Origin: Candidatus Scatocola faecipullorum | GTDB taxonomy: Bacteria; Pseudomonadota; Alphaproteobacteria; RF32; CAG-239 | Length of the DNA: 64,000 nucleotides | Assembly: GCA_018714685.1 (NCBI GenBank) | Contig: DVNC01000021.1 | Location: 12,693 to 76,692, forward strand | Direction: 5' to 3' | Shown here: positions 54,496 through 63,560 of the stretch, in pieces | Layout of the letters: every line of letters begins with the position of its first letter | How positions within the stretch are numbered: position 1 is the first letter of the stretch | Program-made: the position numbers and the translations under genes | Notes under the pieces: model-generated | Told to the model about the DNA's origin: nothing | Seen by the model: the letters and a program-made list of their open reading frames with translations, nothing else | Databases searched by the model: none

Positions 54496-55398
54496 ATGCT
54501 TTGGATTATCGACGGCCTGATTTACGGTTTTTTTACGGCGTTATATACGCTGGTGAACCAGCATTATAAGTTTAACGGTTATTTGCTGGGAATCTGGCGC
54601 GGGTTCGGAATATCTTTTTTCTTTCTGCCGTTTTTGTTTTTTCTGCCGGTTCCCGATGATGCTTATTATTATTTTCTGCTGATTTTTCAAGGTTTTTTAA
54701 TCGGCGTATATGATTCACATCTGTTTTTTGCTTCGGCAGATTACGGAGCGGGGCCGACTTCCCGGGTTATGGCTTTGTCGGCGCTGATTACAACGATTTT
54801 CTGGTGGTTTTTGACCCCGCATTTGTTTTGGGGTTTATTGCAGAACGCAACGGTGTTTATGAGCCTAATCTTAGTTTTGTTCGGGTTTACGGTGAGCTAT
54901 TGGCAAATGGTGCAGTCGCCGGTTTCCAAAGCGTTGGTTTGGTATATGTTTCCGGTTGTTTTTGCTTTTGCGGGAATGAGCATTATTACCAAAGAAATTG
55001 CCCTGCACGGTTCAAACGCCTGGCAGGGTGTGGCCTATTATCTGACCGTGGCAACGTTTGTCAGCGGCTGTTATAACAGTTATTGGTATGCCAAAACGGT
55101 TAAACCCGGTTTAAAGGGCTTTTTCAAAAACGTTTTTGAATGGAAACTGGTTAAGGCCGGTTTGTATGTCGTCAGTTTCAGTTGGGCTCTGATTACGGCC
55201 AAAACACTGGCTTTGCGGATTGCTCCCAATCCGGGATATGTGATTGCTTTGCTGCTGACGTCGCCGATTTTTGTTTTTGTGCTGAACAGGTATCGTAAAG
55301 TTCCGGACAATATTTCGGTTAAGGCCGGTTTTTCGATGATTTTTTTTCTTTTTCTGCTTTTGCTGCTGGTGAACGGTAATTACGGAGTGATTGACTAA
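54496..55398 (+). CDS. Hypothetical polytopic inner-membrane protein (300 aa)
   Basis: About 9 hydrophobic helices and no catalytic motif. Confidence 0.4.
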   Translation: MLWIIDGLIYGFFTALYTLVNQHYKFNGYLLGIWRGFGISFFFLPFLFFLPVPDDAYYYFLLIFQGFLIGVYDSHLFFASADYGAGPTSRVMALSALITTIFWWFLTPHLFWGLLQNATVFMSLILVLFGFTVSYWQMVQSPVSKALVWYMFPVVFAFAGMSIITKEIALHGSNAWQGVAYYLTVATFVSGCYNSYWYAKTVKPGLKGFFKNVFEWKLVKAGLYVVSFSWALITAKTLALRIAPNPGYVIALLLTSPIFVFVLNRYRKVPDNISVKAGFSMIFFLFLLLLLVNGNYGVID

Positions 55399-57041
55399 CG
55401 GCAGAGTTCTTCGATGATTTTGTTGAGAAGCAAAAAACCCCGGTTGGCGGCGCGCAGGCTGTGCTTGTCTTCAAACAGAAGTTTTTGCCGGATTAAGCTT
55501 TGTCTGGCTTTGTCATTGACAAAGCCGGTCAGTTCCAATCCGCATTGGCGGCGGAAGTTTTCTTTGTTGATTCCTTCACGGATGCGCAATCCCATAATAA
55601 TCAATTCTTCCGCCCGTTCCTGCGGGGTCAGTTCTTCCAGTTGCCGATGGTGGGTCGAGGCATAAATTTTATCGGTTGTTTTGATGCGTCCGTGGGCGGC
55701 GGGGCCAATCCCGAGATAGTTTTGTCCGCGCCAATAGGCCAGATTATGGATTGATTCATAACCGGGGTGGGCAAAGTTGGAAACTTCATATTGCGGATAG
55801 CCTTTTGTTGCCAAAAATTCCTGTGTCAGCGCATAGAGTTCGGCTGCCGGTTCATCATCCATCGGTTTGATGCCTTTGCGGGCAAAAAAGGTGCCTTCTT
55901 CGATGGTCAGTTGGTAGAGCGAGAGATGTTTCAGGCCGAGTTCGCTTATCTGGTTCAGTTCTTGTTTCCAGGCTTCCGCGGTTTGTCCGGGCCGGGCGTA
56001 AATCAGGTCGGCAGAGTGGTTGTCAAACAGCCGTGTTACTTCGTCAACGGCGTGGAGTGCCCGGCTTAAATTATGGGTTCGTCCGAGGAATTTAAGGTCT
56101 TTGTCGTTCAAAGCCTGAATGCCTAAAGACAGACGGTTGATGCCGGCCAGTCGGAGGTCGGCAAAGAGGTTGGGGCGATTGGTGTTGGGGTTCGCTTCAA
56201 GTGAAATTTCCACCTGTTTTGTTGTCGGCCAGAGTTTGAAAATATGATTAATTACTTTTTCAATGTACTGCGGTTCAATCAATGAGGGCGTGCCGCCGCC
56301 GAAAAAAATACTCTGGACGGTTTGTTTGGCCGTCAGGTCGTGATACCAGTTTAAGTCGTCCAGATAACCGTCAATAATTTGTTTTTGATCAACATGCTTG
56401 TCAACTTTGCTGAAAAAATCGCAATAGGGGCATTTGCTTAAGCAGTAGGGCCAGTGAATGTAAACAGACAGGGGAACAATGATTTTATTGGTCTTCTGCA
56501 GGCGTCTTCCGGTGCTCGCGTCCTCACGTACGTCTGTGTACGCTGCGGTTCTGCGCTCCGTGGAGCCACCAGCATAAGCCTCACTAAAATCATTGTTGAA
56601 AAAAGCATTGGTCTTCTGCGGGTGTCTTCCGGTGCTCGCGTCTTCATGTAATTCCCGTGAGGCATAATTCTCTTCTAACCTCCCCTTAATATTAAGGGGA
56701 GGAACGGTAGGGATTAAGTTTGTTATTTGTGAAAGACAGCCTTCAATATTTTCCAGAATATCATTATTCCAAAAGCGAAGAATTTTACAACCGCGTTTTT
56801 TTATATAATTATCGCGAATATCATCCTGATGATTATCATTATGTTGCCCGCCGTTAATTTCAATTATTAATTTGAGCGAAGCACAATAAAAATCGACAAT
56901 ATATTTGTTATCAAAAACATATTGTCTTTGAAAACGTACTCCTAATTGTCGTTTGCGCAGTTTTTGCCATAACAATTTTTCAGCATTTGTTTGGTTGCTG
57001 CGCAATTGACGGGAGTAAGTTATCAGTTGCTTTTCCATCAC
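55395..57041 (-). CDS. hemW: Radical-SAM heme chaperone HemW (HemN-like) with N-terminal DUF559 endonuclease-like extension
   Basis: C-terminal ~360 aa match HemW/YggW ([20 protein letters not shown] radical-SAM CxxxCxxC, GGGTPS). N-terminal ~125 aa is a complete DUF559 domain (…[18 protein letters not shown]…IVDFYC…IIEINGGQH…), joined to HemW by a repeat-containing linker. Confidence 0.8.
56488..56700. repeat. Intragenic direct repeats (2 x 43 nt) and a 24-nt perfect palindrome in the hemW 5' extension
   Basis: ttggtcttctgcaggcgtcttccggtgctcgcgtcctcacgta at 56488-56530 and ttggtcttctgcgggtgtcttccggtgctcgcgtcttcatgta at 56608-56650. Each unit translates as EDASTGRxxQKTN. Palindrome cctccccttaatattaaggggagg at about 56679-56702. 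Confidence 0.7.
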
Positions 57042-58940: not shown

Positions 58941-58978
58941 AAAAAAGGCCCCGCCTGTTTTGGGCGGGGCTTTTTTTT
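58941..58978. terminator. Bidirectional rho-independent terminator overlapping the stop of the large secreted-protein gene
   Basis: aaaaaaggccccgcc tgttttg ggcggggcctttttttt. Confidence 0.6.
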
Positions 58979-61664
58979 ACTTACGTCCTTTCTTATCCAT
59001 CGGTTTGGGTTCTTTTGAACCGGTAAAACCGTCAATGGCAGTGGACACCGGTTTAATGACGGCCATCGGTACTTTCGGCGCCTTGTTTTCCTGTCCGCAG
59101 ATTTCAAGACCGACGGAATTGATGGCGGTAGTGATCGGAATAAAGAGATCAGGACCGTCTTCAAACTTTTTGCCGGCGTGGGACATGCCGTTGATGGTGC
59201 CATGTTCGTCAATCAGCGCGCCGCCGACGGTTACCGTCTGGACGAAAGTGTCAACGATAATCTCGGCGCCTTTTTCGTCGGAATAGCGGTAGCCGCTGAC
59301 TTTGCCGTTGTTGTCAAGGTAGCCTTCGCCGCCTTCGCTGTCTTCCAGCAGGCCGAGAGCCATATAGCCGCCGGTACCGATTTCCGGCAGTTCAAGGTTC
59401 AGCGACAGCGGCGTGAATTGAGTCTTTTCATCCAGCAGAATCAGGGCCGTATTCTTTTTGATGTTGATACGGACGGCCCGGCCGGAGAGTTCGACGCCGT
59501 TAATGGTCTTAAGGCGGTAACGGTTGTTGTCTTTGACAATCAAATCGGCCGAAGTGAGAACAAACTGATCGGAAATTAACAATCCGGCGCCTTTCATGCC
59601 GTTAGCGTTGGTGACGCCGACAACGGAAGCGCGGACTTTGTAAATGTTTTCCGGTGTCAGTTTGTCGTAAGGTCCGCGGTTAACGACGCAAAGCTGGTTG
59701 CGTTCAATCATATCCTGGGTTTCTTCCGGCGGAATATCAAGCGCAGTCCAAGATTGTCCGTCGGTTTCGACTGCACCGCCGAAGTCAATGACGCCGCCGT
59801 CTTCTTCAACGAAATTGCCGCTTTCCTCGAAACCGCCGCTTTCTTCAATATAAAGGTCGGATTCCGGCTGGCAGTAAGGCTGTTCGATAAAGTCTTCAAC
59901 CATAATCTCCTGTTCTTCTTCAAGAGCGCAGGAAGGTTTGGTTCCGAACAGGTCATCAAAGATTGACGGTTCACAGCCGCGGTTTTCTTTGTGAAGGAAC
60001 GGTACCGGCGACGGGGAGCAGCTGCGGTCTTCCTCATGCAGAAATTCAAACATGGAGGGTTCGCAGAAGTTTCCGTCTTCACAGGCATATTCTTCTTCGT
60101 AATTTCCTTCTTCGACGGTAATCTGTTCGCCGCACTGCGGGTTGCCGTCGGCGTCAAGCGGGCAGAAATCGGGGGGTGTTCCGCTGTCTTCCGCTCCGCC
60201 GCTGAGTTCAATCGCGTTGCCGAATTCGTCAAACTGAACCGTACGGTTTTCGGCTTTGGCCGCCGCATCGGCAATTTCGGCTTCCCGGGCATTCAGGCTG
60301 CCGCCCATATCAATCGTATCGCCGCTTTCTTCGACAGGGGTCACTTCGGCGACGGCGACTTCGGTATCGGAATAATCCTGTGCCGGCTGGTCGAGGATTA
60401 ACGTCTGATTGTCCTGGGCATATTGTCCGTTGCCGGCCGAACCGCCCAGTTCTTCAATGGAGCCGCTGCAGTCAGGATTGTCTGCCGGGCAGATTGACAG
60501 CAGTTCGGGTTCGGTTTGCGCCGTGCACATTTGCCCGTCAGCTGCCGTGCCGCCGTTTTCCTGCAGCGGGCAAAGCGTTTGGGCCTGTTTGATTTCAGGC
60601 TGATATTGGCATTTGACCGGGTCGTTCATGCGTTCCATGGCGATAAGCGCCTGTTTTTGAGCCTCTAAATCTTCCGGGGTTTGACGAACGGCCAACTGAT
60701 CTTCAAAGCCGGGAAGCTGGCGCAGATTGTCAACGGCATCGGCAAAAGCCCGTTCGATTAAAATCATTTCGGCATTGTATTCTCCGTCGGGAACCTCGGA
60801 ATAGCCGTTGGATTCCCCTTTCCAGAGAACGTTAGATTTACTGAGGTCCATTAAACGCCAAGTGACGGTCATCTGTGCGGATCCGGTGCGCAGATTGGCT
60901 TTTTCGGCGTCTTTCCAGTCATATTCGTCGCAGAGGTTCATAAAGTAATCGGTGATTTCGGCCGTCAGTACATATTCCGGCAGCGGTTTGTTGACGCCTG
61001 AAAGGCAAACGTCGTTGGGAATTTTGACAATATTGTAGCAGTCGCTGACCTTGTCTTCAAAAATACGGATAAATTCCATATCTTTTTGAATAATGCGTCC
61101 CTCATTTAAAACGGCATGACGCTGGTCGCGCCGGCAGCCGAAGATGCGGAAACGATAATTGCCGAGCCGGCGCGAATAAGTGCGGTCACGGCCTTTTTTG
61201 ATACGGAAATCCACCCATTCCAGCTGGAGAGGGGCAAAATCGCCGCAGCGGTGGTGTATGGTTTGGAAAATGTCTTCTTCCAAGGTAATGTAGTTTTTGA
61301 TATGCGGACGGGGTTTAACCGGTTTGGGCTGATCGCCGCAGTCTTCGCAGGGAAGTTTGATTCTCTTGCAGGTTTGCGGTCCGAACATGGCGCCGCCGCA
61401 AGTGCGCCGGGTGCAGTCGTTGTCGCCGAATATGGGGCCTTCGTTAAATTTGCGGTTGCTTTTGGCTTTTGTCCTGGGCTGAAAATTGTTGTTAAAAACG
61501 GCGCGAGTTCCCTGTGAGCGCGGGGTGACGCGTTCCAGGTTGCGTTCAATCTGGCGGCTGATGATTTTGACTTCTCCGGTGTCGTCCGCCGCGGCGGGCA
61601 GGCTTAAACCGGCAGCAAAGACGGCTGAGAAAAGTAAAAACGGCGCAGATTTTAAAATTTTCAT
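58977..61664 (-). CDS. Large secreted acidic Cys-rich protein (895 aa) with C-terminal degenerate trypsin-like (S1) domain
   Basis: Sec signal peptide (MKILKSAPFLLFSAVFAAGLSLPAAA). Long D/E/C-rich central region. The C-terminal domain resembles chymotrypsin-fold peptidases, but TSADLI stands where the TNAHV catalytic His block would be, and VTVGGALID where GNSGGPL would be, so His and Ser appear absent. Confidence 0.55.
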   Translation of the reverse strand: MKILKSAPFLLFSAVFAAGLSLPAAADDTGEVKIISRQIERNLERVTPRSQGTRAVFNNNFQPRTKAKSNRKFNEGPIFGDNDCTRRTCGGAMFGPQTCKRIKLPCEDCGDQPKPVKPRPHIKNYITLEEDIFQTIHHRCGDFAPLQLEWVDFRIKKGRDRTYSRRLGNYRFRIFGCRRDQRHAVLNEGRIIQKDMEFIRIFEDKVSDCYNIVKIPNDVCLSGVNKPLPEYVLTAEITDYFMNLCDEYDWKDAEKANLRTGSAQMTVTWRLMDLSKSNVLWKGESNGYSEVPDGEYNAEMILIERAFADAVDNLRQLPGFEDQLAVRQTPEDLEAQKQALIAMERMNDPVKCQYQPEIKQAQTLCPLQENGGTAADGQMCTAQTEPELLSICPADNPDCSGSIEELGGSAGNGQYAQDNQTLILDQPAQDYSDTEVAVAEVTPVEESGDTIDMGGSLNAREAEIADAAAKAENRTVQFDEFGNAIELSGGAEDSGTPPDFCPLDADGNPQCGEQITVEEGNYEEEYACEDGNFCEPSMFEFLHEEDRSCSPSPVPFLHKENRGCEPSIFDDLFGTKPSCALEEEQEIMVEDFIEQPYCQPESDLYIEESGGFEESGNFVEEDGGVIDFGGAVETDGQSWTALDIPPEETQDMIERNQLCVVNRGPYDKLTPENIYKVRASVVGVTNANGMKGAGLLISDQFVLTSADLIVKDNNRYRLKTINGVELSGRAVRINIKKNTALILLDEKTQFTPLSLNLELPEIGTGGYMALGLLEDSEGGEGYLDNNGKVSGYRYSDEKGAEIIVDTFVQTVTVGGALIDEHGTINGMSHAGKKFEDGPDLFIPITTAINSVGLEICGQENKAPKVPMAVIKPVSTAIDGFTGSKEPKPMDKKGRK

Positions 61665-61676
61665 CTGTAAGGGCTC

Positions 61677-63203
61677 CTAAATTGTTTTGGCAGGCAGCTT
61701 ACGACGGTAAGACAAAGCCTCGGCGATGTGTATTTTAAGAACATTTACGCTACTTTGCAAGTCCGCAATCGTTCTTGCTAACCGTAAAGTGCGGTGATAG
61801 GCTCGGGCCGAGAGCTGATTTTTGTGGGCGAAGTTGATTAAAAGTTCTTCCGCATCTTTGTCAAGGCGGGTAACTTCTTCAAGCAGCCGGCCGCGGAGCT
61901 GTGCATTGGTGCTGAGCTGCGGCTCGTCAAGTTCGATGAAACGTTGTTTTTGAATTTCGCGGGCTCGAATGACTCTCTCTCTGATTGCTGCCGAACTTTC
62001 GCCGGTTTTGACGGCGGCCATTTCCCAAGGGCTGACGGCCGGAACTTCAATATGGATGTCTATACGATCAAGCAAAGGACCGGAAAGCCGGGACTGATAT
62101 TCTTCGGCGCATTTGGGCGCCCGGCTGCATTCGAGGGCCGGATTGCCGAGGTTGCCGCAGCGGCAGGGGTTCATGGCGGCAATCAGCTGAAATTTGGCGG
62201 GATAAACTGTGTGGGCATTGACGCGCGAAATAGTTATATAGCCGTTTTCCAGCGGCTGGCGCAGGGCTTCCAACGCGGTGCGGCTGAATTCTGGCAGTTC
62301 ATCCAGAAACAAGACGCCGTTGTGTGCGAGAGAAATTTCTCCGGGGGCTGCTTTGCGACCGCCGCCGACCAAAGCCGGAGTGGAGGCGGAATGATGCGGG
62401 TCGCGATACGGGCGGCTGAAACAAAGTTTGCCGTCTTTCAATTCGCCGGCAACGGAATGAATCATACTGGTTTCAAGCGCTTCTTCGGCAGTCAGCGGCG
62501 GCAGAATGGAAGGCAGACGGGCGGCCAGCATGGATTTTCCGGCACCGGGCGGGCCTATCATCAGCAGGTTATGTCCGCCCGCGGCTGCGATTTCCAAAGC
62601 CCGCTTGGCGCTTTCCTGTCCTTTGACGTCACTCATGTCGAGAGGCGTTTCGACGGGCATTTGCTTTTCGGCTTGCGGAAAAGGCAGGGTTTGCTGCCCC
62701 TTGAAGTGGTTAATCAGGCTCAACAGACTGTCGGCCGCAAGAATATCTTTCAAGCCGGACCAGACGGCTTCCGGTCCGCAGGCAGCCGGGCAAATCAGTC
62801 CTTTTTCGGCGGCATTGGCGTGAATGGCCACCGGCAGAATGCCGTTAACGGGAATAATCGAGCCGTCCAGCCCGAGTTCACCGAGGGCAACATAACCGGC
62901 AAGCTCTTCTTGGGGAATGATACCCATGCCGGCCAATAGGCCCAGGGCGACCGGCAGGTCGAAATGGGAACCCTCTTTAAGCAAATCGGCAGGGGCAAGA
63001 TTAATGGTGATGCGTTTGGCAGGAAGGCTGAGGCCCAATGCCTGCAAAGCAGCGCGGACGCGTTCGCGGCTTTCGGCCACGGCTTTGTCGGGCAGGCCGA
63101 CAATGGTAAATGCCGGCAGGCCTGAAGCTATCTGAACCTGAAGATCAACGTCCAGAATTTCCAGACCGTTAAAGGCGACCGTGTTTATTCTTGACTGCAT
63201 CAA
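61677..63203 (-). CDS. YifB/ComM family Mg-chelatase-like AAA+ ATPase
   Basis: N-terminal Lon-protease-like domain, Walker A GPPGAGKSMLA, C-terminal ChlI-type domain, 508 aa. Confidence 0.9.
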   Translation of the reverse strand: MMQSRINTVAFNGLEILDVDLQVQIASGLPAFTIVGLPDKAVAESRERVRAALQALGLSLPAKRITINLAPADLLKEGSHFDLPVALGLLAGMGIIPQEELAGYVALGELGLDGSIIPVNGILPVAIHANAAEKGLICPAACGPEAVWSGLKDILAADSLLSLINHFKGQQTLPFPQAEKQMPVETPLDMSDVKGQESAKRALEIAAAGGHNLLMIGPPGAGKSMLAARLPSILPPLTAEEALETSMIHSVAGELKDGKLCFSRPYRDPHHSASTPALVGGGRKAAPGEISLAHNGVLFLDELPEFSRTALEALRQPLENGYITISRVNAHTVYPAKFQLIAAMNPCRCGNLGNPALECSRAPKCAEEYQSRLSGPLLDRIDIHIEVPAVSPWEMAAVKTGESSAAIRERVIRAREIQKQRFIELDEPQLSTNAQLRGRLLEEVTRLDKDAEELLINFAHKNQLSARAYHRTLRLARTIADLQSSVNVLKIHIAEALSYRRKLPAKTI

Positions 63204-63224: not shown

Positions 63225-63560
63225 TTACCAGCGGGGGGTTATTTCCCCGGGGCGCCAACGGCGGGTGGGATAGGTTCCGGTTTTGAGAAAATCGTAATTT
63301 GCCGTTTTGTAAGGAATATCTTCAAAACGGACATATCCTTTGCTTTCAAACAGTTTGGCGCAGGTTTCGGCGGGTTCGTATTTGGTGGAATAGCATTTGA
63401 CGATAACCCGGGTGAAAGGCTGCTGCAGGTTAATCTGGGTTTCCTCGTTGGCGTAGCTGAACCGCTTGGGCATGAGAGGGTTCTCGGCCTTTTCGGGGAA
63501 AGTGCAGGCGCTGACAGCGGCAGCACAGAGCAGGGCAATTGAGGTTTTGAAAATTTTCAT
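63225..63560 (-). CDS. Small lipoprotein (111 aa)
   Basis: Signal peptide with the lipobox AVSAC. Confidence 0.45.
   Translation of the reverse strand: MKIFKTSIALLCAAAVSACTFPEKAENPLMPKRFSYANEETQINLQQPFTRVIVKCYSTKYEPAETCAKLFESKGYVRFEDIPYKTANYDFLKTGTYPTRRWRPGEITPRW

Follow-up and report, generated by a model that had tools for sequence, protein, structure and literature searches.

The 895-residue protein encoded directly upstream of hslV-hslU in the window (the whole 64-kb stretch of DNA analysed here) ends in an HtrA-like domain that is almost certainly a catalytically dead pseudoprotease. Its closest active homologs are two-domain proteases found at the same chromosomal position, and the dead form is conserved across a clade of its own. 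Judging from its sequence, the protein probably now acts as a structural or binding protein, and an envelope-resident, non-enzymatic role is the reading that we favor, with somewhat better than even confidence.

The gene and its product

The open frame singled out in a preliminary description of this DNA is a real gene, and the features reported for it proved accurate. It is followed directly 3' of its stop codon by a terminator graded as strong. More than 120 near-identical copies of the frame occur in gut metagenomes and MAGs, and single 90%-identity clusters are present on up to 558 contigs. Strain variants of the protein carry tandem duplications, all in frame. Its neighbors in the window are addAB, hemW, hslVU, and comM, and no paralog was found within the 64 kb. 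The features of the gene and its product are as follows.

58977..61664, minus strand: complete coding sequence, 895 aa plus TAA stop, start ATG
61674..61677, minus strand: ribosome-binding site GGAG, 9 nt before the ATG, overlapping the TAG stop of comM
58948..58970, minus strand: intrinsic terminator, 8-bp all-GC stem, 7-nt loop, CTTTTTT T-run
61587..61664, minus strand: predicted Sec signal peptide of SPase-I type, aa 1-26, read from the sequence
61248..61586, minus strand: basic, Cys-bearing N-terminal segment, aa 27-139 (pLDDT <60)
60570..61247, minus strand: conserved N-domain with a putative CsgG/LptE/PelC/HpaA-like alpha/beta fold, aa 140-365 (model pLDDT >90)
59730..60569, minus strand: acidic, Cys-bearing linker, predicted disordered, aa 366-645 (pLDDT <50 for most of aa 372-631)
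60291..60335, minus strand: linker motif copy 1, VEESGDTIDMGGSLN, aa 444-458
60192..60233, minus strand: linker motif copy 2, degenerate, FDEFGNAIELSGGA, aa 478-491
59928..60065, minus strand: three tandem 15-aa C-[ES]-P-S repeats, aa 534-579, lineage-specific
59769..59849, minus strand: linker motif copies 3 and 4, IEESGGFEESGNFVEEDGGVIDFGGAV, aa 606-632
59085..59729, minus strand: catalytically dead S1C/HtrA-like domain, aa 646-860, from alignments, model, and Foldseek
59544..59546, minus strand: Asp707 codon at the catalytic His position (LTSADL against LTNxHV), from alignments
59451..59453, minus strand: Asn738 codon at the catalytic Asp position (KKNTALI against RDVALV), from alignments
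59214..59234, minus strand: VTVGGAL block, aa 811-817, replacing GNSGGPL, from alignments
58980..59084, minus strand: conserved tail, aa 861-895, ending KEPKPMDKKGRK-COOH

The signal peptide, MKILKSAPFLLFSAVFAAGLSLPAAA/DD, shows the basic n-region, 17-residue hydrophobic core, and A-A-A cleavage motif expected from the earlier reading of a Sec signal. No lipobox Cys could be read in the protein, the first Cys not occurring before residue 84. There are 25 Cys residues in all, with 10 in aa 27-345, 14 in aa 346-660, and one in the tail.

A catalytically dead HtrA-like domain

By sequence, the trypsin-like signature of the C-terminal domain is weak. Pfam Trypsin_2 (PF13365) matches aa 692-827 at E 5.5e-4 and 21.1 bits, below the gathering score of 27.6; the sequence match to HtrA1 in the PDB reaches only about E 0.45; and the dead-clade profile alone, searched by sequence against solved structures, reached none. 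The assignment is nevertheless firmly established by profile comparison, an AlphaFold2 model, and Foldseek. Aligned with the active subfamily by hhalign, the dead clade matches over 393 columns spanning both domains (probability 100%, E 3.5e-49). The model has a pLDDT of ~95 across aa 650-860, more than one third of the whole protein being modelled at low confidence, and the modelled domain matches DegP, DegS, DegQ, HtrA1, MucD, and the RsgI9 S1C domain in the PDB at E 9e-10 to 1e-8 with probability 1.0, the top match being RsgI9 (PDB 7sjy, E 8.9e-10). The DegP-like fold that had been assigned to the last ~250 residues therefore stands, with its extent revised to a domain of ~215 residues and a conserved tail of 35.

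Two blocks previously read as degenerate, TSADLI and VTVGGALID, do sit at the catalytic His and Ser positions (His replaced by Asp707, Ser by Val813). Three independent alignments put Asp707, Asn738, and Val813 in the columns of the His, Asp, and nucleophile Ser, and Val811 in that of the oxyanion-hole Gly. No alignment made to check the pseudoprotease claim contains an intact His-Asp-Ser triad at shifted positions, and the Foldseek check gave a clear structural likeness to S1 peptidases. The replacement residues are themselves conserved across the clade, as LTSADL, KNxAL, and T[VIL]GGxLID; since T704, S705, A706, and D707 are near-invariant, the old His loop is evidently under constraint. C659 and C856 are invariant in the dead clade, and a 25-sequence clade alignment contains no invariant or near-invariant His or Lys in this domain. 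Searches of Pfam and NCBIfam found no PDZ domain in the protein, in which only 35 residues follow the protease-like domain, and the active relatives lack one too.

The protein thus shares with HtrA, DegP, DegS, and DegQ (MEROPS S1C; Trypsin_2, PF13365) a chymotrypsin-like fold and predicted export to the envelope, and homology to them is clear through active relatives of ~450 aa. It differs from them in lacking the triad, the oxyanion-hole Gly, and PDZ domains, with G-N-S-G-G-P reading V-T-V-G-G-A, and in adding a CsgG/LptE-like N-domain, a long repeat linker, and a conserved basic tail.

Origin from an active two-domain protease

A phmmer search returned 434 cluster representatives at E <= 1e-3, many of them ~450-aa proteins in which both domains lie side by side. 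These relatives match Trypsin_2 at about E 1e-31 and retain intact TNxHV, RDVAL, and GNSGGPL blocks. They share both modules with the 895-aa protein, in the same order and with homology over the full length; C177, C245, W269, and an AFADA motif are common to the whole two-domain family. At least 42 of 64 active relatives carry a lipobox, and the parent family, as its sequences read, is an unnamed group of two-domain envelope lipoprotein proteases with a CsgG/LptE-like N-domain followed by an S1C domain. One dead sub-clade also has a lipobox. Because most other dead-clade members lack a lipid anchor, outer-membrane attachment of the 895-aa protein is conjectural.

The 41 dead-triad sequences form a monophyletic group that includes no member with an intact triad. 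In the triad columns, basal members carry S-D-L, K-D-L, or G-D-L, having retained the catalytic Asp and lost the His and Ser. Relatives are encoded in 256 GTDB species genomes, and almost all of the best 80 come from gut or rumen Alphaproteobacteria that have not been cultured. Conservation is strong in both domains, the 25-sequence alignment having ~48 invariant columns. Since the inactivated site has been kept throughout a monophyletic clade, retention in a non-catalytic role can reasonably be inferred; the earlier suggestion of a pseudoprotease used as a binding module is borne out as to a predicted exported protein with a dead S1C domain, and its binding role would fit such retention.

Gene order points to the same origin. 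Active relatives (P0192, P0181, and P0177) are arranged hisB <- / -> protease -> hslV -> hslU, and the 895-aa gene and its closer relatives are arranged comM -> X -> hslV -> hslU; the gene lies directly upstream of hslV-hslU in the window and in about 35 of 80 related loci. The dead gene thus lies where relatives encode the active enzyme, and no spare duplicated copy of the latter came to light. Identity among loci is 40-78% for the 895-aa family, 55-86% for comM, and 78-96% for hslV. The tight, conserved linkage to comM, a cytoplasmic protein, stands without explanation under an envelope reading.

Features gained with the loss of catalysis

Beyond the protease-like domain, the preliminary description had missed the CsgG/LptE-like N-domain, a clade-wide linker motif, N-terminal Cys repeats, and a K-x-R-K tail. 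Its account of ~300 N-terminal residues with scattered Cys was right as to the Cys; the folded N-domain spans only aa ~140-365, and aa 27-139 form a low-confidence, basic Cys-repeat segment. This segment holds a CEDC motif and two copies of G-[SP]-[ILM]-F-x(2-6)-C, GPIFGDNDC (aa 76) and GAMFGPQTC (aa 91). Across 108 clade proteins this repeat was counted 255 times, whereas shuffled sequences gave 3.3 +/- 1.7.

The N-domain aligns with that of the active relatives in profile-profile comparison, and its C177 and C245 are near-invariant throughout the two-domain family. Foldseek matched its model in the PDB to CsgG (E 3e-6) and to XCC0632 (DUF330), Cj1090c, LptE, and PelC (E 1e-5 to 1e-3), all with modest scores. 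The fold of aa 140-365 may be of the type found in the outer-membrane lipoproteins CsgG, LptE, PelC, HpaA, and DUF330, and the active relatives are likewise lipoproteins by prediction. However, Pfam gave zero matches over aa 27-650 even at E <= 10 and no match on the N-domain of the relatives at E <= 0.01, so that a sequence-level family match is missing, as is a lipobox in the 895-aa protein itself; neither ring formation nor membrane insertion is indicated.

The D/E-rich region of ~300 residues noted earlier was confirmed, with 23.5% D+E, 2.9% K+R, and a net charge of -63 over aa 353-658. Within the dead clade the linker is net-negative and varies from 31 to 636 aa; this ~20-fold range argues against a role as a fixed-length spacer. 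It carries a repeated motif, hydrophobic-hydrophobic-E-(D/N)-S-G, with 188 copies against 1.9 +/- 1.3 in shuffles, which is absent from the active relatives. The C-x-E/D repeat originally described corresponds to three tandem 15-aa units, CEPSMFEFLHEEDRS / CSPSPVPFLHKENRG / CEPSIFDDLFGTKPS-C, with Cys at 534, 549, 564, and 579. This C-[ES]-P-S repeat is restricted to the closest relatives (P0121, L001, and L006), and it is the other motif that is clade-wide.

The tail has the clade consensus K-A-P-E-x-M-x-x-K-E-R-K, with P(-10) in 99%, R(-2) in 91%, and K(-1) in 99% of 106 clade proteins; the 895-aa protein ends ...D-K-K-G-R-K. A terminal Lys is found in 99% of the core clade and in 5 of 8 basal dead members, compared to 7% of active relatives. 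Like the Lpp box of Braun's lipoprotein and OutB, the tail is a charged C-terminal extension, here of a putatively periplasm-exposed protein, in which a basic residue precedes Lys-COOH. The full ending of E. coli Lpp is ...K-Y-R-K, compared to ...K-E/D-R-K in the dead clade. Residue -3 is thus acidic in the dead-clade tail and aromatic in Lpp, and the upstream K-A-P-E-x-M motif has no counterpart in Lpp. To our knowledge, Lpp-type tethering through a C-terminal Lys is documented only in Gammaproteobacteria; Lpp and OutB are gammaproteobacterial, whereas the clade proteins are alphaproteobacterial and resemble them at the level of sequence. E. coli Lpp ends in Arg-Lys; OutB needs its Lys-terminated Lpp box for attachment to peptidoglycan, and such a box suffices to attach OutB and even a periplasmic reporter (bioRxiv 10.1101/2024.09.03.610988). 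A search of ~1 Mb of neighborhood DNA from related loci for the YkuD motif of L,D-transpeptidases found none. Tethering of the 895-aa protein to peptidoglycan through its terminal Lys is possible by analogy, though we regard it as doubtful.

Alternative functions

A protein of this composition could instead cross the outer membrane and act as a surface or secreted adhesin, a calcium-binding protein, or an effector, as first proposed, using its repeats and dead domain as binding modules on targets in the host, in mucus, or on other cells. The lineage is host-associated, acidic residues and Cys are abundant, the repeat arrays are hypervariable in number and length, strain variants show in-frame tandem duplications, and the family evolves faster than its neighbors comM and hslV. 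We consider such a function unlikely nonetheless. Pfam and NCBIfam gave no adhesin match and no beta-barrel, autotransporter, T1SS/RTX, T9SS, or sortase-type signal, and the genes that surround it (addAB, hemW, hslVU, and comM) include none for secretion. The linker motif is unlike the GGxGxD nonapeptide of RTX proteins: GGxGxDxUx repeats, a T1SS signal, and T1SS neighbors were all absent by Pfam, motif consensus, and the housekeeping character of the neighborhood. Its ancestors, moreover, appear to have been ordinary periplasm-facing envelope lipoproteins, and the gene sits at the same conserved housekeeping position as the active enzyme. Alternatively, the protein might, without catalysis of its own, regulate or assist an active envelope protease, pairing with an HtrA-type enzyme encoded at another site in the genome or presenting substrates to it. 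HtrA-family domains oligomerise, and the residues of the old active site are conserved after their replacement. There is also an alphaproteobacterial precedent in MamO, which promotes MamE-dependent proteolysis (PMC4794232). A partner protease is absent, however, from the window and from all 80 related loci, the dead gene stands at the position of the active enzyme rather than being a duplicate kept beside one, and the repeat linker and terminal Lys would be left unexplained; this function, too, seems improbable to us.

It is very hard to maintain that the domain is still an active hydrolase with non-canonical residues, such as the near-invariant Ser705 and Asp707. The constancy of T704 through D707 would suit such an enzyme, but Ser705 lies on the His loop and not on the nucleophile loop, where Val, Leu, or Ile stands in for the nucleophile and Val for the oxyanion-hole Gly. 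The domain lacks an invariant or near-invariant His or Lys, and the basal members differ at the triad columns. The opposite extreme, a decaying relic that has lost its function and is drifting, would account for the lost triad, the fast overall rate of change, and the variable middle region. We give it almost no credence: 78 of the 80 best loci yielded open frames that cover both domains, the family extends over 256 species genomes, and both domains keep their invariant columns. New conserved motifs have been gained rather than lost, and the ribosome-binding site and terminator are intact. The conservation pattern already effectively refutes a relic.

Comparison with known pseudoproteases

MamO is an HtrA-type pseudoprotease of the magnetosome in magnetotactic Alphaproteobacteria, repurposed for binding, with a degenerate triad, a non-Gly residue at the oxyanion-hole position, and a surface di-histidine metal-binding site (PMC4794232). 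The 895-aa protein resembles it in the first and second of these active-site features, in its non-catalytic retention, and in its alphaproteobacterial host. Unlike MamO, which arose beside redundant active proteases and works with MamE, it is encoded at the active enzyme's site with no partner seen nearby; the two architectures are entirely different, and no magnetosome genes were seen near the 895-aa gene. RsgI9 of Clostridium thermocellum is described as having a protease-like S1C domain that binds cellulose (PDB 7sjy; PMC12203970). RsgI9 is an anti-sigma factor anchored in the membrane of its Gram-positive host and has an NTF2-like partner domain, whereas the 895-aa protein has neither a transmembrane segment nor an anti-sigma module.

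A proposed history and role

We hypothesize that the active enzyme itself went dead at its original chromosomal site beside hslVU, in an uncultured lineage of gut and rumen Alphaproteobacteria, with His, Asp, Ser, and the oxyanion-hole Gly giving way to Asp, Asn, Val, and Val. The dead lineage would have mostly lost its lipid anchor while gaining N-terminal Cys repeats, a variable, net-negative, motif-bearing linker, and a basic tail ending R-K-COOH. The 895-aa protein would then stay in the periplasm in a structural or binding capacity, with both folded domains kept under constraint as interaction modules. The old active-site cleft might serve as a groove that binds a peptide or ligand, the CsgG/LptE-like domain might make contact with some component of the outer membrane, and the repeat linker might connect the folded domains in a flexible, multivalent, polyanionic way. 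L,D-transpeptidases, for their part, may cross-link the terminal Lys to peptidoglycan, as happens with Braun's lipoprotein and OutB.

More speculatively, and at rather long odds, bacteria without Braun's lipoprotein could have turned a retired protease into this protein as a covalent envelope tether of a new kind. L,D-transpeptidases would fix its invariant terminal Lys to peptidoglycan, while the CsgG/LptE-like domain, together with the Cys-repeat N-terminus, would grip a component of the outer membrane. Binding of the dead protease groove and the hydrophobic-hydrophobic-E-(D/N)-S-G motifs, either to each other or to a partner, would make for an adjustable, multivalent link from the outer membrane to the cell wall.

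Implications

Pseudoenzymes derived from bacterial HtrA proteases are known, as in MamO and RsgI9, but are still few. Inactivation in place, with no spare copy seen, makes this clade a clean natural experiment in the repurposing of an envelope protease, of which the basal members that kept the Asp and lost the His and Ser are a part. The ~450-aa lipoprotein proteases adjoining hslVU, from which it descends, form an uncharacterised parent family. The dead-protease protein is common across a gut and rumen lineage of Alphaproteobacteria, all uncultured, and its loss of catalysis coincides with the gain of three features: the linker motif, the Cys repeats, and an Lpp-like C-terminus. Should the terminal Lys prove to be joined to peptidoglycan by a cross-link, tethering by a C-terminal Lys would reach past the Gammaproteobacteria and to a protein that is not a lipoprotein, a wider possibility that the OutB study explicitly raises (bioRxiv 10.1101/2024.09.03.610988).

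Domain organization of the encoded protein

58977-61664, reverse strand: coding sequence of the 895-aa query protein, read as an ORF with a TAA stop

The N-terminus of the query protein reads as a typical signal for signal peptidase I (MKILK, a hydrophobic core and PAAA/DD), with no lipobox, and the TAA stop of its gene is followed by a hairpin with an 8-bp all-GC stem and a T-run. The preliminary description of a cysteine-rich protein with an acidic region and C-x-E/D motifs matches the composition of the query, which has 25 Cys in total, a basic segment at aa 27-130 (pI 9.5), and a region at aa 353-658 that comprises 23.5% D+E and 2.9% K+R, for a net charge of -63. The motif quoted there corresponds to three 15-residue tandem units, each starting with C-[ES]-P-S. 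Tandem Repeats Finder identified no DNA-level tandem repeats in the gene; in nucleotide sequence the protein repeats have diverged too far. The sole NCBIfam match, to CxxC_Se_CxxC (E 0.021; 15 bits against a cut-off of 40), was considered spurious.

Structure prediction with AlphaFold2, using a 99-sequence alignment, yielded two confident domains at aa ~140-365 and aa ~650-860 (each with pLDDT >90), with low confidence for aa 18-125 and aa 372-631. Modelled separately, aa 60-420 matched CsgG structurally (E 3e-6) and, at E 1e-5 to 1e-3 and modest TM-scores, also HpaA, XCC0632 (DUF330), Cj1090c, LptE, PelC and FlgT. No Pfam match was found for this N-terminal module in the relatives of 410-480 aa.

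A catalytically dead S1C/HtrA-type domain

The trypsin-like signal of the C-terminal domain is weak by sequence alone: the query scores 21.1 bits against Pfam Trypsin_2 (gathering score 27.6) and matches HtrA1 among PDB sequences at E ~0.45, and a profile of the query and its dead-triad relatives (the dead clade) retrieved nothing from PDB sequences at E <= 1e-3. Foldseek searches with the modelled domain recovered S1C protease domains at E ~1e-9, with the S1C domain of RsgI9 as the top match, followed by HtrA1, Rv3671c, MucD and DegP/Q/S. In the HtrA1 alignment, the two blocks previously proposed as degenerate catalytic motifs coincide exactly with the positions of the catalytic His and Ser, and an Asn of the query stands opposite the catalytic Asp.

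Searched exhaustively at E <= 1e-3, 1.84 billion cluster representatives yielded 434 relatives, in which the conserved modules correspond to aa ~140-345 and aa ~655-860 of the query. Many are proteins of 410-480 aa in which the two modules adjoin and the acidic insert is absent. These shorter relatives match Trypsin_2 at E ~1e-31, have only partial NCBIfam matches to DegP, DegS or MarP, all far under cut-off, and contain no PDZ domain. An alignment of 111 C-terminal domains split cleanly into two groups, with the short proteins carrying the catalytic blocks TNxHV, RDVAL and GNSGGPL, and the query and its closer relatives carrying LTSADL, KNxAL and T[VIL]GGxLID. Profile-profile comparison of the dead-clade and active-subfamily alignments (probability 100%, E 3.5e-49, 393 columns) covered both domains, placed the acidic insert between them, and recovered the same three triad substitutions together with replacement of the oxyanion-hole Gly by Val. 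The query domain is unable to use the serine-protease mechanism, since the nucleophile, general base, charge-relay Asp and oxyanion-hole Gly are all absent.

The active subfamily is large and occurs in cultured Rhodospirillales (Shumkonia, Telmatospirillum, Dongia and Magnetovibrio) and in one Desulfobacterota species, where the annotation of its members goes no further than "S1C family serine protease" or the like. For ten relatives, cluster look-ups returned generic names only, and a literature search for a CsgG-like and trypsin-like lipoprotein returned no papers.

Evolutionary loss of catalysis and host range

In a neighbour-joining tree of C-terminal domains, all 41 dead-triad sequences form one clade with no intact-triad members inside, which points to one main loss of catalysis in the family. 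Basal members of the clade (P0159 and P0160, both S-D-L, and P0150, P0151 and P0169) keep the Asp and have neither His nor Ser, suggesting that the latter two were lost first. Elsewhere in the tree, independent triad losses occur in three short lipoproteins of the otherwise active subfamily, P0229, P0239 and P0240 (~460-620 aa), whose triad columns read G-G-A, R-D-L and D-N-A; the Asp/Asn pair of P0240 is the same as that of the query clade and was reached independently.

A scan of GTDB species genomes with the dead-clade alignment identified relatives in 256 of them. Among the best 80, nearly all belong to uncultured Alphaproteobacteria of the gut or rumen, under the labels Azospirillum sp., Azospirillaceae, Candidatus Scatocola or CAG:495. 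A few relatives were assigned to Lactobacillaceae, Bacteroidaceae or Lachnospiraceae bins, which we interpret as misbinning. Human and chicken gut assemblies supplied the near-identical copies of the query, and variation among 117 such copies within the species has no clear regional bias. A literature search on the host lineage returned nothing mechanistic.

Genomic position

61677-63203, reverse strand: comM/yifB-like AAA+ gene
63225-63560, reverse strand: 111-aa lipoprotein gene with lipobox VSAC, no Pfam match

In three active relatives (P0192, P0181 and P0177, on contigs L081-L086), the gene for the ~450-aa protease is followed in the same orientation by hslV and hslU and is preceded by divergently transcribed hisB and, beyond it, hisH. 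Given that this order is shared by three unrelated alphaproteobacterial contigs, the protease family has a conserved position beside the HslUV protease genes. The query gene is also directly upstream of hslV-hslU, as are its homologues in about 35 of 80 related loci; the dead gene thus occupies the slot of the active enzyme.

Upstream, the lipoprotein gene, comM and the query homologue follow one another in 76 of the 80 loci, with the upstream sequence cut off or undetected in the other four. In the window the genes of this run are tightly spaced, 21 nt and 12 nt apart, and a GGAG 9 nt 5' of the query ATG overlaps the TAG stop of comM. Such stable linkage of a cytoplasmic ComM-type protein with two envelope proteins is puzzling. 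Across related loci the query gene evolves faster, at 40-78% identity, than comM (55-86%) or hslV (78-96%). No paralogue of the query was found within the 64-kb window, and an active copy may have moved elsewhere in the genome.

The downstream side (hslVU and hemW) is often rearranged in related loci, and includes the following features in the window:

55395-57041, reverse strand: hemW-like radical-SAM gene, a single 548-aa ORF with an N-terminal DUF559 domain (E 1e-31)
54496-55398, forward strand: 300-aa ORF, no Pfam match at E <= 1e-5

Between the DUF559 and hemW-like parts lie about 60 residues with a 16-nt inverted repeat and a 44-nt direct repeat (56487-56530 and 56607-56650; 91% identical, 120 nt apart), an arrangement that may reflect either a genuine fusion or the insertion of a small element. 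The 300-aa ORF adjoins hemW in several related loci, at 66-80% identity. More broadly, GC skew turns from negative (about 4 to 16 kb) to positive (16 kb onward), with a cumulative minimum near 14-16 kb, as would be expected close to a replication origin. Neither tRNA genes nor Rfam matches were found anywhere in the 64 kb.

Features gained in the dead clade

A lipobox is present in at least 42 of 64 active relatives, whereas dead-clade members mostly carry a signal peptidase I signal, with one sub-clade as the exception. Their N-terminal segment is 81-376 aa long and usually basic, with 5-29 Cys; CxxC motifs occur in 95 of 108 proteins. The repeat G-[SP]-[ILM]-F-x(2-6)-C is found there in 255 copies in 108 proteins (3.3 +/- 1.7 in shuffles), two of them in the query.

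The linker between the domains is unalignable and ranges from 31 to 636 aa, and is net-negative in all 25 aligned dead-clade members. It carries a motif, [IVLMF][IVLMFDET]-E-[NDEST]-[SGC]-G, with 188 copies in 106 proteins against 1.9 +/- 1.3 in shuffled sequences (maximum 9); one example is the peptide IIEDSGVVSSGSG. Many species have it in tandem arrays that repeat every 21-44 aa around the core (I/V)(V/I)-E-(D/N/T)-S-G-x-x-S-S-G-x-G, and the query retains degenerate copies at aa 444-458, 478-491 and 606-632. In 29,359 residues of active relatives the motif occurs a single time, and it is missing from the other ORFs of the window. No library searched recognised this repeat: matches of the arrays from loci L024 and L034 to NifU-like (E 5e-4) and DUF2175 (E 2e-3) entries of Pfam/PDB were under threshold and probably compositional, and the L024 array had zero matches at E <= 1e-3 in the large homology search. 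An RTX-like reading of the G-G-containing motifs was rejected, as consensus and spacing differ.

Three proteins from other assemblies (P0001, P0002 and P0003; 1036-1057 aa) are otherwise near-identical to the query and owe their extra length to in-frame tandem duplications of 141-162 aa inside the linker (window about 59769-60335). The junctions differ, each lying at a copy of the E-x-(S/G)-G...GG motif, which looks like unequal recombination between repeats, though each comes from a single contig and may be an assembly artefact.

The third feature is a 35-residue tail ending in K-A-P-E-x-M-x-x-K-E-R-K-COOH, with P(-10) and K(-1) conserved at 99%, R(-2) at 91% and M(-7) at 87%. A terminal Lys occurs in only 7% of 175 active relatives, whose tails are not conserved, and in five of eight basal dead members, whose tails are otherwise different. 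PEP-CTERM or sortase-type sorting was rejected, as no hydrophobic segment follows the K-A-P-E motif. Both folded domains and all three new motifs are under constraint.

Possible role in the periplasm

The query protein would be exported by Sec and probably remains periplasmic, like its lipoprotein ancestors, because it has no recognisable signal for further transport. It is most likely a binding or structural element there. Both MamO (PMC4794232) and the S1C domain of RsgI9 (PMC12203970) are precedents for such a role. A fixed-distance spacer is argued against by the 20-fold range in linker length. Among the new features, the terminal K-x-R-K is the most suggestive. E. coli Lpp has an Arg-Lys end, and L,D-transpeptidases cross-link its last residue to peptidoglycan. 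According to the OutB study, a C-terminal box of this kind, placed where a charged extension ends, is both required and enough for tethering, even of a periplasmic reporter; one terminal Lys will do, and the study proposes the same attachment for further periplasmic proteins (bioRxiv 10.1101/2024.09.03.610988). A regular-expression search for YkuD L,D-transpeptidase motifs found none in the window and related loci, one neighbourhood being uninformative for the genome. To our knowledge, Lpp-type C-terminal tethering is documented only in Gammaproteobacteria. Tethering of the query to peptidoglycan through its terminal Lys would fit the data, and we advance it tentatively, as a possibility on the doubtful side.

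Other readings are less probable. The surface adhesin, calcium-binding protein or effector envisaged in the preliminary description would suit the fast evolution and repeat variability, but both a secretion signal and a supporting gene context are absent, making this unlikely. We regard as similarly improbable a MamO-like role as co-factor of an active protease, the partner protease of which was not seen. Residual non-canonical catalysis is very unlikely, and across the clade alignment the C-terminal domain offers no other invariant His or Lys. Least probable of all is a decaying relic, which the conservation pattern effectively excludes.

HtrA-type pseudoproteases are already known in bacteria. 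What is new here is the architecture, combining a CsgG/LptE-like domain, a repeat linker, a dead S1C domain and an Lpp-like tail, together with three gained motifs and an apparent loss of catalysis in place, where the active enzyme sits.
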